A stretch of DNA of 64,000 nt from Gammaproteobacteria bacterium (GTDB taxonomy: Bacteria; Pseudomonadota; Gammaproteobacteria; Eutrophobiales; Eutrophobiaceae). A model generated the notes under the pieces. It was not told the DNA's origin, did not search any database, and was given only the letters and a program-made list of their open reading frames with translations. The stretch lies in NCBI GenBank assembly GCA_965222155.1, contig CBDCTH010000012.1:1408001-1472000 (forward strand), written 5' to 3'. Positions 3,529 to 19,660 of this stretch are shown one piece after another (within the stretch, counting starts at the first letter, position 1; each line of letters starts with the position of its first letter). Position numbers and translations under genes: made by a program.

Positions 3529-4839
3529 CTATTGTGATGATTTAGCTTTATTCCAGAACCTTTCATAAATAAAGACAGAGCCAAAGATAACCAGGAGAAA
3601 CAAGGGAAGAATCGCGATTGTTTGAAAGGTCTCTTCCGCGGCAGCACGAGAAACCAGATCCAATTGAGAACCGCTGAGCTCTGCTAAAACCCGCTCACCA
3701 CCTGCTGCATGTAATTTGGCTTTGTCATAAATAGCGCCGAATTGCGGCAGAATGAAATGGATAGACAAGGCGCCGGCCGTGCCTATGAGCCCAATTGTCC
3801 AGGGGCCACCGCGTGGATAGCGTTCAGCCGCCTGGGCCAACATGGTCGGCCACATAAAGCAAACTCCGGCACCCCAAAATGTCGCTGCAACGATAGCACT
3901 GGCAGGTGATGTGGCTACGCTGAGAAGATAAAGGCCTATTGCAGCAAGCAGGCTGGAACACCATAATAATCCTACCGGAGAGAGAAAGTGTGAGAGCGGC
4001 CCGGCAAAGTGGCGGAACACAAACATCATGCTACTTACGTAGACTAATATGATAATACCTTGCATCCCGACCGTTTGAGAAAGGATGAGTTCAACCAGTT
4101 GTCCTGGTGCAAGCTCTGAAGCAGCGGTCAGAAACATGGCGCCAAACCAGATGAAAAAACTCGGTCGGCGAACTATTTCATACACCATATCCCTGAAACT
4201 AACCCCGGACTGCACTCGCTGTGTCTGTGGGAATTCTGATATAAGGCTGAGACACGTCGTTGCGATGGCAGGCAGTATCAGCGCACTGAGTACAATACGC
4301 CAGTCCAGAGCCATCGAATCGGCAAACAATGCCCAAAGCCCGCCTATCACCAATCCGGCAGGCCACCAGGCATGCAACACGTTGATGCGATGAGTCGTGT
4401 CTTTTGGATATATGGTTGCAGCTAACGGGTTGATGGCGGCTTCTACTGAACCCCAACCCAGGCCCTGCAATGCCATGCCGAGCCACACAAGCCGGTAAAC
4501 ACGTTCACCTTCGGCTAGAGAGTCGGAAAAAATCACCAACAATGCCCCAGCGCTGAAAGCAATTCCGGAGAACGATAACATCCGGCGAATACCGATAAAG
4601 TCCAGAGCCAGACTCCCGAAAAACAGGGTGATGGCAAATCCTAAAAAGGAAACTCCAAGCGCCTGGGTCATCAAGGTGACTGAATTTGAGGGATCTATGA
4701 GGCTGAACAGTTCAACTGATATTTCATCCGATACGGCCACCCGTAGTGACAGGCTGATGGCAGCAGATGTCAATGCCAGTATCGCGATCCAGAATAAGAC
4801 AGCGGGCCGCCGCAGCGGTAAGTTTTTCATGTTTGCCAT
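3529..4839 (-). CDS. MFS transporter (sugar/glycoside-associated)
   Basis: About 12 hydrophobic segments; EAAINPL and HAWWPAGLVIGG motifs. Confidence 0.85.
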   Translation of the reverse strand: MANMKNLPLRRPAVLFWIAILALTSAAISLSLRVAVSDEISVELFSLIDPSNSVTLMTQALGVSFLGFAITLFFGSLALDFIGIRRMLSFSGIAFSAGALLVIFSDSLAEGERVYRLVWLGMALQGLGWGSVEAAINPLAATIYPKDTTHRINVLHAWWPAGLVIGGLWALFADSMALDWRIVLSALILPAIATTCLSLISEFPQTQRVQSGVSFRDMVYEIVRRPSFFIWFGAMFLTAASELAPGQLVELILSQTVGMQGIIILVYVSSMMFVFRHFAGPLSHFLSPVGLLWCSSLLAAIGLYLLSVATSPASAIVAATFWGAGVCFMWPTMLAQAAERYPRGGPWTIGLIGTAGALSIHFILPQFGAIYDKAKLHAAGGERVLAELSGSQLDLVSRAAAEETFQTIAILPLFLLVIFGSVFIYERFWNKAKSSQ

Positions 4840-4851
4840 AGATATCGAGAG

Positions 4852-5169
4852 TCAGTCCTTTCCCATGTAGTCTACTTCCATAAAATCCGATACCTCCTTA
4901 AGCCAGCGTTGAATTACGAAGGCCTGGTGAGTGGGGTGATCGTTGTAGGCGTCGTAGGCAGCCTGATTTTCAAATTCCATTGAAAAACCAAAATCGAAAT
5001 CATTCTTTCCACTGACCTCTCTAAGAACCTGAAAGTTCTCAACCTGGGGTATACCGGTCAGAATTCGCTCTGCGTCACGCAAAAAAATCTGTGTTCCAGG
5101 CGCATCCTTTGCATAACGCAGACGAAAGGCAACCGTATGCAGAATGCGTTCTCCGCTTAGCCTGTTCAT
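4852..5169 (-). CDS. Dabb (stress-responsive alpha/beta barrel) family protein
   Basis: ILHTVAFRL, FDFGFSMEFENQAAYDAYNDHPTHQAFV; start moved to ATG 5169, which follows a GAGGA RBS. Confidence 0.85.
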   Translation of the reverse strand: MNRLSGERILHTVAFRLRYAKDAPGTQIFLRDAERILTGIPQVENFQVLREVSGKNDFDFGFSMEFENQAAYDAYNDHPTHQAFVIQRWLKEVSDFMEVDYMGKD

Positions 5170-5225
5170 GCCATCCTCACTCATAGTTATTATATTCCTG
5201 GAATTAGTTGCATTGTCAGGGGGAG

Positions 5226-16808: not shown

Positions 16809-16821
16809 GACGACCCATGTA

Positions 16822-18318
16822 ATGGCTGTTTTCCTGGGTATCGATATTGGTACGCAAAGTGTCAAACTGGTTGCCTATGACGCTGAACGGCGCACTATTG
16901 TAAAATCCTGTCCTGCTGCTCTCGAGTTGATCAGCCGGGATGACGGCAGTCGTGAACAGTTGGCCCACTGGTGGATTGCGGCTATCCGCTCCTGTTTTGA
17001 CCAACTTGATCAGACAATCAAGACCCGGGTCAGGGCAATAGGAGTTTCAGGTCAACAACATGGATTTGTTCCCATGGATCAGTACGGCCGGGTACTTGCG
17101 CCGGTGAAACTCTGGTGCGACACATCAACAGTAAAGGAGTGTGAAGAGATAACCGAGACACTCGGCGGCACTGAAAAAGCAATCGCAATTGCCGGCAATC
17201 CAATCCTGCCGGGATATACGGCCTCCAAGGTACGCTGGTTAAAAAAACATAAGCCGGACGCTTATGCAAAGATGAAAACGATTCTGCTACCCCATGACTA
17301 TGTAAATTACTATTTGACTGGAGAATTATTCATGGAATATGGAGATGCCTCAGGGACGGGATGGCTGAATATTCGTACACGCCAATGGAGTGACGAAGTA
17401 CTGGCGGCTATGGATAACGAACGTGATTTGAAGGAATGTCTACCCTCACTGGTCCAACCGGACGAAGCGCAATTGATTTCTAAATCTGCCGCGGACGAGT
17501 TCGGGCTGTCTTATGACACCATAGTGTCTCCGGGAGGAGGGGACAATATGATGACCGCCTTCGGAACCGGCAACGTCAAGGAAGGATGTTTAACCATGAG
17601 CCTGGGCACATCCGGGACAATTTTTGCCTGTTCAGACAGCCCCGTAATTGACCCGGAAGGGGAGTTTGCTGCATTTTGCTCATCTTCGGGTGGCTGGCTG
17701 CCTTTGCTTTGCACCATGAACTGTACAGTCGCGACAGAAACCATACGGAAACTGGTGAAACTGGAATTGGCACAGGTTGAGACTATACTCAATAACACTC
17801 ACTCAGGGGCGGGCGGCATTGTTACATTGCCATTCTATAACGGTGAGCGCACACCCGATTTACCCCGTGGGAAGGGTTGTATCATGGGGATGGACCTGAA
17901 AAATGCAACTGAAGAAAATCTTTTTCGTTCGGCAATGGAAAGTGCGACATTTGGCCTGAAGAATGGATTTGAGGCGTTTGAACGAACAGGTTTGTCGTTT
18001 AGCAGTATCCGTGTGACGGGTGGCGGGGCTGCCAGTGCCGGTTGGAGGCAGATGATCGCAGATATCTTTGACTTGCCTGTTATCGTGCTGAAGCAGCAGG
18101 AAGGCGGGGCACTGGGCGCGGCGATACAGGCGCTCTGGGTTTGTCAATCCAGCCAGGGTGGAAGGGGAAGTATCAGTGAAATCGTCGATGAATACCTGCT
18201 CATTGAAGATGCCGCCACTCATGAACCGGATTCCCGGACTTCCGCTGAATATGGAGAATATTATCAAACTTACCTGAGACACCTCGAAGTCATCTCACCA
18301 CTTTATGCAGGAGACTGA
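16822..18318 (+). CDS. xylB: Xylulokinase (FGGY family)
   Basis: [38 protein letters not shown]; adjacent to xylA. Confidence 0.9.
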
Positions 18319-18319
18319 T

Positions 18320-19660
18320 ATGAAGAGCAACTATTTCATCGGAAACAGGGAATATTTTGCGGGGATTCAGAAGATTCAATATGAAGGGCCCGAGTCTGAT
18401 AATCCTCTGGCTTTTAAACATTATGATGAAAACAAAGTCATTGGAGACAAGACCATGAAGGACCATCTGCGCTTCTCCGTGTGTTACTGGCATACTTTTT
18501 GTGGTACGGGCGGCGATCCGTTCGGCCCGGGAACTCAGGTGTTTGCTTGGAATGAACCAGCGGCTCCAATGGACGCTGCAAAAGCGAGAATGGATGCCGC
18601 TTTTGAATTTTTTACGAAACTGGGTGTACCGTATTTTTGTTTTCACGATCGTGATATCGCACCTCAAGGGGCAACGGTATCCGACTCCGAGGCAAATCTT
18701 GCCGTTATGACGGATATTGCTTTACAACGACAAAAGGAAACGGGGATGAAATTATTATGGGTGACGGCGAATTTGTTCAGCCACCCTCGTTACATGAACG
18801 GAGCCGCTACCAATCCGGACTTTTACGTACTTGCTCACGCCGCTGCGCAGGTCAAGAGCGCACTGGATGCAACAGTGAAGCTTAATGGTGAAAACTACGT
18901 CTTCTGGGGCGGCCGGGAAGGTTATGCGTCCCTGTTAAACACCGATACAAGATGCGAGCTTGATCACATGGCAAAATTTCTCAGTCTTGCCAGAGACTAC
19001 GGTCGCAGCATTGGTTTTAAAGGCAATTTTCTGATTGAACCGAAACCAATGGAACCCATGAAGCATCAATATGATTTTGATGCTGCGACTGTGATTGGCT
19101 TTCTGCGGCACTATGGACTCGATAAGGACTTTAAACTCAATATAGAGGCCAATCATGCGACGCTTGCCGGTCATAGCTTTGCCCATGATTTACAGGTGAG
19201 TGCCAATGCGGGAATGCTCGGTAGTATTGATGCCAATCGAGGCGATCCTCAAAATGGCTGGGACACTGATCAATTTTCTGTGGATTTATACGATACCGTA
19301 ACGGCAATGCTTGTAGTGCTTCAAAATGGCGGACTGAATCCCGGTGGTTTAAACTTTGATGCCAAAGTGAGACGTGAATCCATTGACATGGAAGACATCT
19401 TCATCGGGCATATCGGTGGGATTGATGCTTTTGCCAAAGGGTTGGAGGTAGCTTATGAACTGATTGAAAATTCTTCAATGATTACGGACAAGAAAAACCG
19501 GTACAGAAATTTCAATGAAGGGAGGGGAGCTGACTTTGAAAACGGCAGGCTTGACCTGATCGCGTTAAGGGATATTGCTGCCGAGCATGGTGAACCAGCA
19601 ATTGAAAGCGGTAAACAGGAGCATTATGAAAATCTACTTAACCAATATATGACTAAATAA
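18320..19660 (+). CDS. xylA: Xylose isomerase (class II)
   Basis: [44 protein letters not shown] 18320 follows AGGAG. Confidence 0.95.

Follow-up and report, generated by a model that had tools for sequence, protein, structure and literature searches.

The window analysed here is a 64,000-nucleotide stretch of a Gammaproteobacteria bacterium genome (contig CBDCTH010000012.1, positions 1,408,001 to 1,472,000). At 3529-19660 it carries 14 densely packed genes that we propose to be a transferable accessory catabolic island of ~16 kb, whose products would cleave glycosides without a hydrolase by a 3-keto route split across the cell envelope, and would accept both gluco- and xylo-configured substrates. 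Judged from sequence, we put the probability of this reading at about 0.5. The 3-keto route itself is already known; its union with the xylose isomerase and xylulokinase genes, xylA and xylB, is unusual. Numbering throughout is by window position; this genome is called G000, and G007 is a sister species in the same genus.

In the proposed pathway, a TonB-dependent receptor would bring a glycoside or oligosaccharide over the outer membrane. A periplasmic GMC flavoprotein with flavin adenine dinucleotide (FAD) and an iron-sulfur cluster, acting with a small subunit that carries a twin-arginine translocation (Tat) signal, would oxidise the C3 hydroxyl of the sugar at the non-reducing end and hand its electrons to a cytochrome encoded elsewhere. 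Two Tat-exported, metal-dependent lyases of the BT1/AL1 type would eliminate the aglycone to give a 2-hydroxy-3-keto-glycal, which an MFS transporter would import. In the cytoplasm, an ortholog of the Agrobacterium hydratase AtHYD would hydrate the glycal to a 3-keto-sugar, a Gfo/Idh/MocA enzyme would reduce this to the aldose, and XylA and XylB would turn xylose into xylulose 5-phosphate. The island would supply funnel enzymes missing from the host: xylAB in both species, with a glucokinase added in the sister. In G000 there would be an evident outlet for the xylose branch only.

Gene order and export signals

The 14 genes form two divergent arrays on either side of a 297-bp spacer (7464-7760). 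Reading outwards from the spacer, the minus-strand array encodes a xylose-isomerase-like TIM barrel of the hydratase type (HYD), the Gfo/Idh/MocA oxidoreductase (Gfo), a Dabb protein and the MFS transporter. The plus-strand array encodes the TonB receptor, a first TIM barrel (TIM1), the small subunit, the GMC protein, a UPF0261 protein, a PEP_hydrolase-like protein, a cupin, a second TIM barrel (TIM2), XylB and XylA. Spacing within the plus array ranges from overlaps to ~105 bp, and the only intergenic gaps of >60 bp in the interval are the spacer and 15730-15833; with gaps so small there is no room for a further gene. A preliminary description of this DNA had named the receptor, the GMC protein and its small subunit, the TIM barrels, Gfo, the MFS transporter and xylAB. 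All of these are real genes and lie where it placed them, but it overlooked four others (UPF0261, PEP_hydrolase-like, cupin and Dabb). Its statement that the locus has no glycoside hydrolase, DUF1080 protein or regulator is borne out by a Pfam search of the 14 genes, which found no glycoside-hydrolase, DUF1080 or DNA-binding domain.

Twin-arginine motifs are limited to TIM1 (MDRRTCIK), TIM2 (MKRRTCVK) and the small subunit (MKRRTFL); there is none in GMC, HYD, Gfo, UPF0261, the PEP_hydrolase-like protein, the cupin, XylB or XylA. The signal peptides thus divide the enzymes as the preliminary description had proposed, with oxidation and elimination in the periplasm, and hydration and reduction in the cytoplasm. 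Its description of GMC as Tat-exported would hold only by way of hitch-hiking on the small subunit, as GMC has no signal of its own. The true start of TIM1 is probably 9955 (MDRRTCIK..., just past the receptor stop) and not the listed 9886; that of Dabb is probably an internal ATG.

The spacer presumably holds the promoters of both arrays, and the best sigma-70-like match of our scan (10/12; 7567-7540, minus strand), a weak one, lies inside it. Across 3300-20500 the promoter scan returned 12 sites against 17.6 expected from shuffled sequence, and the terminator scan 16 sites against 16.0 in shuffled sequence. As neither count exceeds that of shuffled sequence, the scans are uninformative on operon structure.

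The predicted periplasmic steps

The receptor (7761-9950, plus strand, 729 residues) has Pfam Plug and TonB_dep_Rec_b-barrel domains and an N-terminal signal-like segment, and is proposed to be the outer-membrane uptake step. Its G007 ortholog is 93% identical, and a 46% identical homolog lies upstream of a TIM-small-GMC set in a metagenome locus (L104).

The GMC catalytic subunit (11480-13189, plus strand; Pfam GMC_oxred_N and GMC_oxred_C) has as its nearest solved relatives the fructose dehydrogenase large subunit 7w2j (E 3e-37) and the FAD glucose dehydrogenase 6a2u, at 105-132 bits. Four cysteines, C228, C231, C234 and C238, are invariant among 28 homologs and align to a Cys-rich stretch of fructose dehydrogenase (8k6k/7w2j). 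Some homologs of 56-59% identity carry the JGI name 'glucoside 3-dehydrogenase (cytochrome c) catalytic subunit'. We propose that GMC is a glycoside 3-dehydrogenase with an iron-sulfur cluster. Its predicted partner, a Gluconate_2-dh3 protein (10908-11483, plus strand; PF13618, E 1.8e-34; N-terminus MKRRTFLAASAVFGG), is the sole copy in the genome, and a homolog of it adjoins the GMC gene in 66 of the 72 genome loci described below.

TIM1 (9955-10911, plus strand; N-terminus MDRRTCIKLALLAAGG) and TIM2 (15834-16808, plus strand; N-terminus MKRRTCVKLGLLSTGA) are paralogs with 55% identity, and TIM2 is 86% identical to its G007 ortholog. The nearest solved relatives of the pair are 8tcd, 8tcr, 8tcs and 8tct (E 1e-18 to 6e-20); TIM1 matches 8tcd/8tcs at E ~1e-18, and TIM2 matches 8tcd at 6e-20 and 8tcs at 1e-19. 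The titles of these four entries read merely 'sugar phosphate isomerase'. Since residues that Nasseri et al. name in their paper align, we read these entries as the BT1/AL1 structures. The motifs HNHxxEF, E(F/L)DxxWA, H(M/I)KD and VEV are kept in the alignment of TIM1 to BT1/AL1, and the His/Asp/His metal-site and catalytic-Glu motifs align in a comparison made at the level of motifs, not structures. TIM1 and TIM2 are accordingly put forward as candidate periplasmic 3-keto-glycoside 1,2-lyases. Their matches to the Agrobacterium eliminase AtOGE (8bvk) are partial (E 3.7e-8 and 9.7e-10). The cluster thus shows no eliminase of AtOGE type: BT1/AL1 match better, and it contains no other TIM barrel that could fill this role.

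Flanking the island on the MFS side, and outside the 14-gene count, lies a secreted pyrroloquinoline quinone (PQQ) quinohemoprotein dehydrogenase (1358-3472, plus strand; Pfam PQQ 648 bits) with a signal-like N-terminus, a beta-propeller and an inserted cytochrome c domain (Cytochrome_CBB3, residues 469-530). The contig of the G007 island also keeps this flanking gene (87% identity), and in a Rhizorhabdus locus (L050) a homolog with 49% identity is encoded 4 kb away from the genes for GMC and the small subunit. The PQQ dehydrogenase may be associated with the island, and could be an electron partner or an additional periplasmic oxidase.

The predicted cytoplasmic steps

HYD (6408-7463, minus strand), which has no signal peptide, matches the 2-hydroxy-3-keto-glucal hydratase structure 8ro4 with E 7.3e-182 and 607 bits. 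Residues 1-350 align end to end with residues 1-349 of 8ro4, at about three-quarters identity as read off the printed alignment, and HYD is a close ortholog of Agrobacterium AtHYD.

Gfo (5226-6386, minus strand) comprises three Pfam GFO_IDH_MocA domains, has no signal peptide, and lies 21 bp from HYD. Its best solved relative is 3v5n (E 2e-145); the models for levoglucosan dehydrogenase and for BT_2158/2159 score far under their cut-offs (NF058561, the BT_2158 family, gives 32.6 bits against 750). We propose that Gfo is an NAD(P)H-dependent 3-keto-sugar reductase. A Gfo homolog of at least 38% identity adjoins HYD in 16 of 16 cases among the GMC loci, and one of at least 47% identity in eight of ten places in our class sample.

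The MFS_1 transporter (3529-4839, minus strand, 436 residues; E 1.5e-16) would carry the keto-glycal or keto-sugar across the inner membrane. Orthologs with 47-49% identity adjoin HYD in three Halieaceae loci (L008, L012 and L014), and the G007 ortholog is 89% identical. The Dabb (stress-responsive alpha/beta-barrel) protein between MFS and Gfo (4852-5271, minus strand; Pfam Dabb at residues 43-136, E 6.6e-17) is 87% identical in G007 and, among the GMC and HYD loci examined, was seen in these two genomes only.

Across both compartments, the structure matches agree with the proposal in the preliminary description that these families form a non-hydrolytic route of C3 oxidation, beta-elimination, hydration and reduction.

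Linkage of the route to xylA and xylB

XylB (16822-18318, plus strand) and XylA (18305-19660, plus strand) both pass equivalog cut-offs (TIGR01312, 518 bits against 380; TIGR02630, 689 bits against 533). The gap between TIM2 and xylB is 14 bp, and xylB overlaps xylA by 14 bp; xylAB are thus not visibly separate from the rest of the array. This xylA is the sole copy in G000. Among 22 genomes of the genus and G000, a GMC ortholog together with an intact xylA was found only in G000 and G007. The G007 island lies on one contig in the same gene order (GMC 89%, HYD 91% and XylA 88% identical).

A third member of the genus, G014, retains a xylA fragment (L074 (G014:C1) 10039-10284) of 82 residues with 85-87% identity and one stop. 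The fragment lies ~3 kb from the same orf316/M28 genes that flank the island here, with acyl-CoA-ligase-like and PanE-like genes between. Because this fragment remains, the island was probably present in the ancestor and later lost in G014.

The linkage also recurs outside the genus in other gene orders, and is not unique to this genome. In Halioglobus sp. Uisw_031 (L008) the order is xylB-xylA-Gfo-HYD-MFS-TIM-small-GMC on one strand, with gaps of ~20-40 bp. A locus of an uncultured Halioglobus (L014) is syntenic with it on both sides but without xylBA; in L008, xylBA is inserted directly ahead of Gfo-HYD. The TIM barrel of the Halioglobus locus (L008:8175-9020) was considered as an AtOGE-type eliminase and rejected, as it resembles ketose 3-epimerases (7dz5, E 2.5e-39); it also resembles 3-keto-D-glucoside 4-epimerase (6wn6). 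In G379 (L077), a xylA with 52% identity and a CUT1-type ABC transporter stand beside HYD-Gfo. In a maximum-likelihood tree of 28 HYD sequences, from which the partial L086 was left out, the xylA-linked sequences fall at three separate places: the window with G007 (99/97), G379, and L008 within a Halieaceae clade (100/99). Since these sequences are separate on the tree, the link between xylA and HYD arose at least twice. Outside the genus, xylA lies within 10 kb in two of 26 HYD places; as a rough estimate, a single-copy gene would lie <=10 kb from another by chance in ~0.5% of 4-Mb genomes. The xylAB link is not chance.

Other genes that bear on pentoses were also seen next to HYD-Gfo. In G315, a GH43 beta-xylosidase (GH43 and GH43_C2) is immediately upstream of HYD-Gfo in the same co-directional array. 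In G009, a member of this genus without a GMC ortholog, HYD-Gfo is followed co-directionally by an SGL lactonase and an ILVD/EDD dehydratase (L075 (G009:C1) 5967-17799); beyond a LacI gene lie two short-chain dehydrogenases (SDR family), an aldose 1-epimerase and a TonB receptor, divergently oriented. We take the G009 neighbourhood to resemble the upper Weimberg route. Such an arrangement would couple a keto-glycal branch to non-phosphorylative aldose oxidation.

Distribution of the core module

GMC belongs to a very large family, as all 8000 candidates scored (8000/8000) were matched at E <= 1e-50. We sampled 72 genome loci from many phyla, with GMC homologs of 48-58% identity, and took in as much as 10 kb to either side; some of the contigs end before 10 kb. 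Besides the small subunit (66 loci), these loci hold a HYD ortholog of 63-75% identity in 16 cases and a Gfo homolog in 20, including all 16 with HYD. A TIM1/2-like gene (~30% identity) is present in 13-14, an MFS gene in eight, a related TonB receptor in five and xylAB in one; UPF0261, the PEP_hydrolase-like protein and the cupin are in none. A metagenome scan with the GMC protein gave 35 loci, all with <=60% identity, and none contained HYD, xylAB or UPF0261. GMC homologs with 67-70% identity (P0002-P0005) exist as proteins but were not recovered as DNA.

HYD orthologs (E <= 1e-60) occur in 10 of 400 genomes in an even sample of the class, this genome included. Elsewhere the HYD neighbourhoods hold DUF1080 (L013, L051, L059 and L061), GH3 (L060) or ThuA (L012) proteins; this Pfam survey covered open reading frames (ORFs) within 7 kb of HYD and omitted L031, L049, L052 and L077, the last of which was annotated separately. 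These locus counts make GMC, small subunit, HYD and Gfo a recurring module, which has in part been characterised already. One variant of this recurring core is the arrangement seen here, in which exported lyases of BT1 type accompany it and a DUF1080 protein is absent.

Which sugars the island would serve

The G000 genome is 100% complete by markers, with 7.3% contamination. It has no match to DUF1080 (PF06439), although control genomes did yield PF06439 matches, and none to GH43, GH10 or GH1; these three and GH3 were the glycoside-hydrolase families searched. GH3 gave one match, a 359-residue ORF that we take to be NagZ-like. The models Glucokinase, ROK, Hexokinase_1 and PTS_EIIC had no match in G000, and five PfkB-family kinases were found. 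The sister island differs at this point. A glucokinase gene, glk, lies between Dabb and MFS with gaps of 54 and 5 bp (L073 (G007:C141) 15739-16713; 324 residues; TIGR00749, 272 bits against a cut-off of 225). It is the only glk of G007, in a genus where five of 22 genomes have one. At this position the window has 12 bp and no remnant, and across 125 loci compared the G007 locus was the only one with a glk homolog. As glk is embedded in the island, glucose would be a product in G007.

We favour a broad gluco/xylo specificity as the simplest reading of these contexts. Gluco- and xylo-configured sugars have the same stereochemistry at C2-C4. Broad specificity would also be consistent with the preprint on the BT/AL enzymes, the available part of which states that the oxidase strictly requires no hydroxyls other than those at positions 3 and 4; its main text, in that part, does not mention xylosides (10.1101/2024.03.25.586180).

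Several observations weigh against the island as we propose it. The lyase assignment is distant: TIM1 and TIM2 share only ~70 bits with BT1/AL1, and their identity to relatives encoded near GMC genes elsewhere is only ~30%. None of the 14 genes encodes a cytochrome c, the only nearby haem c domain being inside the flanking PQQ dehydrogenase, and the Pfam search found no regulator encoded in the cluster. Four of the 14 genes (UPF0261, PEP_hydrolase-like, cupin and Dabb) are not accommodated by the proposed pathway. Linkage to xylA is rare (1/72 GMC loci, 0/35 metagenome loci and 2/26 HYD places outside the genus). HYD is very close to the glucose-pathway enzyme; its orthologs are 63-77% identical regardless of context, with no pentose-adapted clade visible. 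The literature searched held no 3-keto-xyloside terms. Finally, with no glucokinase, ROK, hexokinase or PTS_EIIC match, glucose lacks an evident outlet in G000.

The closeness of HYD to AtHYD, an enzyme that Bitter et al., in the part of the paper available, characterised on the glucose-derived glycal (PMC10628242), also favours a rival in which the locus, like that of Agrobacterium, encodes a 3-keto pathway for glucosides alone, and xylAB are passengers for free xylose or for a xylose-containing leaving group. This would fit the G007 array HYD-Gfo-Dabb-glk-MFS, and also the absence of xylose genes from most HYD and GMC loci. The missing kinases and PTS component in G000 argue against it, as do the position of xylBA within an operon-like array, immediately behind a lyase gene, and their insertion directly before Gfo-HYD in Halioglobus. 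Also against it are the recurrence of three kinds of pentose genes beside HYD-Gfo and the presence of just one inner-membrane transporter in the cluster. We consider a purely glucoside-specific pathway somewhat unlikely.

More doubtful is the specific proposal of a hydrolase-free route for beta-xylosides and xylo-oligosaccharides, in which xylose would be peeled off as a pentose keto-glycal and rebuilt by HYD and Gfo for XylAB; in the host where it would operate, neither a xylanase nor a xylosidase nor a glucose kinase was detected. The strict version of the preliminary description, in which the pathway would serve xylosides or C-/S-linked pentosides exclusively, appears improbable. In its favour are the xylAB wiring, the pentose contexts that recur and the fact that G000 gave no match to glucose kinases. 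Against it, a G007 island whose proteins are 84-93% identical carries glk, the hydratase has not diverged from the glucose-pathway enzyme, and the 3-keto systems described so far accept a broad range of substrates, as far as the accessible preprint text goes (10.1101/2024.03.25.586180). Nothing points to action on C-glycosides: the Pfam search of the 14 genes detected no C-glycoside-type deglycosidase subunit and no enzyme of CarB/CarC or DgpB/C type. Less probable still is that no glycoside is cleaved and that the TIM barrels are isomerases or dehydratases for interconversion or salvage of free keto-sugars, anhydro-sugars or cyclitols; the three non-XylA TIM barrels do weakly match the myo-inosose-2 dehydratase IolE (61-70 bits against a cut-off of 290) and Gfo the levoglucosan and inositol dehydrogenases, but all these scores are far under curated cut-offs, among solved structures the best matches are to a keto-glucal hydratase and 3-keto-glucoside lyases, and the TonB-dependent receptor suggests a larger substrate.

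UPF0261, the PEP_hydrolase-like protein and the cupin

Three genes lie between GMC and TIM2: a UPF0261 (Tm-1-like ATP-binding) protein (13235-14449, plus strand; N- and C-terminal Pfam domains, E 1.9e-59 and 3.5e-90), a PEP_hydrolase-like (TBST) TIM barrel (14450-15301, plus strand; PF09370, E 4.9e-125) and a small cupin (15298-15729, plus strand; Cupin_2, E 4e-17). The first two have G007 orthologs with 84% and 92% identity. The cupin is missing in G007, where 39 bp separate TIM2 from the PEP_hydrolase gene and tblastn gave no match better than E 0.018. UPF0261 is absent from the 72 genome and 35 metagenome GMC loci and from the other HYD loci examined, and the PEP_hydrolase-like protein from all GMC and HYD loci examined except that of G007.

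Within the class sample, UPF0261 (E <= 1e-60) was found in five of 399 other genomes at 33-49% identity. LIV-type ABC transporters and SRPBCC proteins occur in two of the four contexts that were annotated, and no sugar-related gene was present in any of the four. The PEP_hydrolase-like protein is the usual partner of UPF0261, and the pair is also present in L122 and L123. In L122 (G135:C28), beside a LIV-type ABC transporter and the pair, a sigma-54 activator (1279-2997) has an N-terminal PEP_hydrolase (TBST) domain. The architecture and context of this activator suggest a possible role for the TBST domain in ligand sensing. For UPF0261 proteins a single activity is known, the ATP-dependent phosphorylation of phenolic aromatics, according to the available part of the report on MarK (PMC12624787). 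The protein here has the N- and C-terminal UPF0261 domains and, unlike the stand-alone MarK, is paired with a PEP_hydrolase-like protein (PMC12624787). It is speculation that the pair phosphorylates an enol or phenolic intermediate or aglycone.

Traces in RNA libraries

Two metatranscriptome runs from one study contain contigs 90-99% alike to the island, covering 15 and 21 of 30 bins; uncovered bins were not taken as silence. Contigs from these RNA libraries bridge TIM1-small-GMC (10338-12106), PEP_hydrolase-like-cupin (15275-15743) and TIM2-xylB (16610-16892). Such libraries may contain DNA, and a contig across two genes is not proof of one transcript; the contigs are a weak hint that the locus of a relative is transcribed.

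Island edges and neighbouring DNA

Contigs of a 99%-identical strain (run X3) carry unlike sequence before 3520 and before 19744, and an RNA-library contig of a 95% relative (run X20) diverges after 19664. G007 has a different gene downstream of xylA. Going by these differences, the island may end only a short way beyond the stop codons of the MFS gene and of xylA. The window contains no tRNA gene, and no direct or inverted repeats bracket the island; the sole long repeat is the TIM1/TIM2 paralogy.

The genes directly downstream look decayed. At 20375-21855 an M28 peptidase is split into ORFs of 316 and 177 residues that overlap by 4 bp, where G014 has one 605-residue ORF (L074:5864-7681), and at 21891-22544 a luciferase-like monooxygenase is just 217 residues long, covering profile positions 19-220 of 314. 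Then follows a separate nitrogen-compound locus (22784-39380), with an HTH-cupin regulator, a GATase, GXGXG, Glu_synthase and Gln-synt_C set, an MFS protein, a second TonB receptor, a DAO flavoprotein and four amidohydrolases; the GATase to Gln-synt_C set resembles N-methylglutamate-type methylamine genes. The stretch 39725-47733 looks mobile or defence-related (an AAA_14/DUF4143 ATPase, a Uma2 nuclease-like protein, Fic/DOC and a 611-residue ORF without family), and just past it, at 47890-49245, is a 451-residue ORF without family. At the end of the window, 56292-63947 reads fabD-fabG-...-fabF-pabC-mltG-tmk-holB-tatD, which we take to be a conserved gammaproteobacterial arrangement.

Implications

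If the route does act on xylosides or xylo-oligosaccharides, the 3-keto pathway would widen from hexosides to pentosides; the xylAB wiring makes such a pentoside branch a concrete idea. Bacteria seemingly without carbohydrate-active enzymes could then use plant or algal glycosides, which bears on predictions of degraders from such enzymes. The predicted set is compact (a respiratory-linked GMC protein, two exported lyases, a hydratase and a reductase), and its natural versions with glucokinase (G007) and without (G000) permit comparison. Should the enzymes prove to act on glucosides only, the island would simply join a family of pathways already reported in 2023-24.

Comparison with known systems

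Relative to the D-xylose isomerase pathway, XylA and XylB are clear members by their equivalog scores, and the locus lacks a dedicated xylose transporter (XylE or XylFGH) and the regulator XylR: the 14 genes hold no Sugar_tr domain, ABC transporter or DNA-binding domain. The predicted dehydrogenase is like the FAD/3Fe-4S three-subunit enzymes of Gluconobacter (7w2j) and Burkholderia (6a2u) in its aligned Cys-rich motif and in its Gluconate_2-dh3 small subunit with a Tat signal. Unlike them, it has no gene for a cytochrome c subunit, and the sequence match is only the 105-132 bits given above. The glucoside 3-dehydrogenase of Rhizobium has a mono-haem cytochrome c as acceptor, in the part of that report available (PMC9915066).

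In the Agrobacterium pathway, as described in the accessible text of Bitter et al. 2023, GlycDH with a partner of the TAT pathway oxidises C3, AtOGE eliminates, AtHYD hydrates and Gfo reduces 3-keto-glucose (PMC10628242). The island would share this sequence of oxidation, elimination, hydration and reduction (8bvk, 8ro4) and, by description, a flavoprotein dehydrogenase with a Tat-signal partner (PMC10628242). In both, the Gfo/Idh/MocA gene adjoins that of the hydratase, and the hydratases are orthologous (8ro4). The putative eliminases differ: the island has two, both with Tat signals, and they are not orthologs of AtOGE. Since both carry Tat signals, elimination would be periplasmic. The island further adds the TonB receptor, the MFS transporter, xylAB, UPF0261/PEP_hydrolase-like, the cupin and Dabb.

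LacABC of Caulobacter crescentus is reportedly a lactose/salicin 3-dehydrogenase (Arellano, 2010). As described in the available part of Price et al. 2022, LacABC and DUF1080 proteins are periplasmic, and a transporter, two 'epimerases' and a reductase serve the keto-sugar (PMC9007349). By that description the two systems are alike in having a periplasmic GMC-type dehydrogenase with a small subunit and, nearby, a transporter, 'sugar epimerase' TIM barrels and a keto-sugar reductase; Caulobacter differs in its DUF1080 proteins and cytochrome subunit, and a link to xylAB is not described in that part of the paper (PMC9007349).

The BT2156-2160 and AL1-AL5 systems of Bacteroides thetaiotaomicron and Alistipes are like the island in an exported TIM-barrel 3-keto-beta-glucoside 1,2-lyase with aligned active-site motifs, in a split between periplasm and cytosol and in requiring no Koshland glycosidase. 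They use as oxidant a Tat-exported, NAD-bound Gfo/Idh/MocA enzyme, whereas the island would use an FAD/iron-sulfur GMC protein. They include a DUF1080 alpha-lyase/hydratase, a family with no match in the whole G000 genome, whereas hydration in the island would be cytoplasmic and of the AtHYD type. In the BT/AL systems, according to the part of the preprint available, three enzymes are periplasmic and one is cytosolic (10.1101/2024.03.25.586180). The suggestion in the preliminary description that a compartmentalised version had not been described therefore fails: envelope-split 3-keto routes are already known both from BT2156-2160/AL1-5 (10.1101/2024.03.25.586180) and from Caulobacter (PMC9007349).

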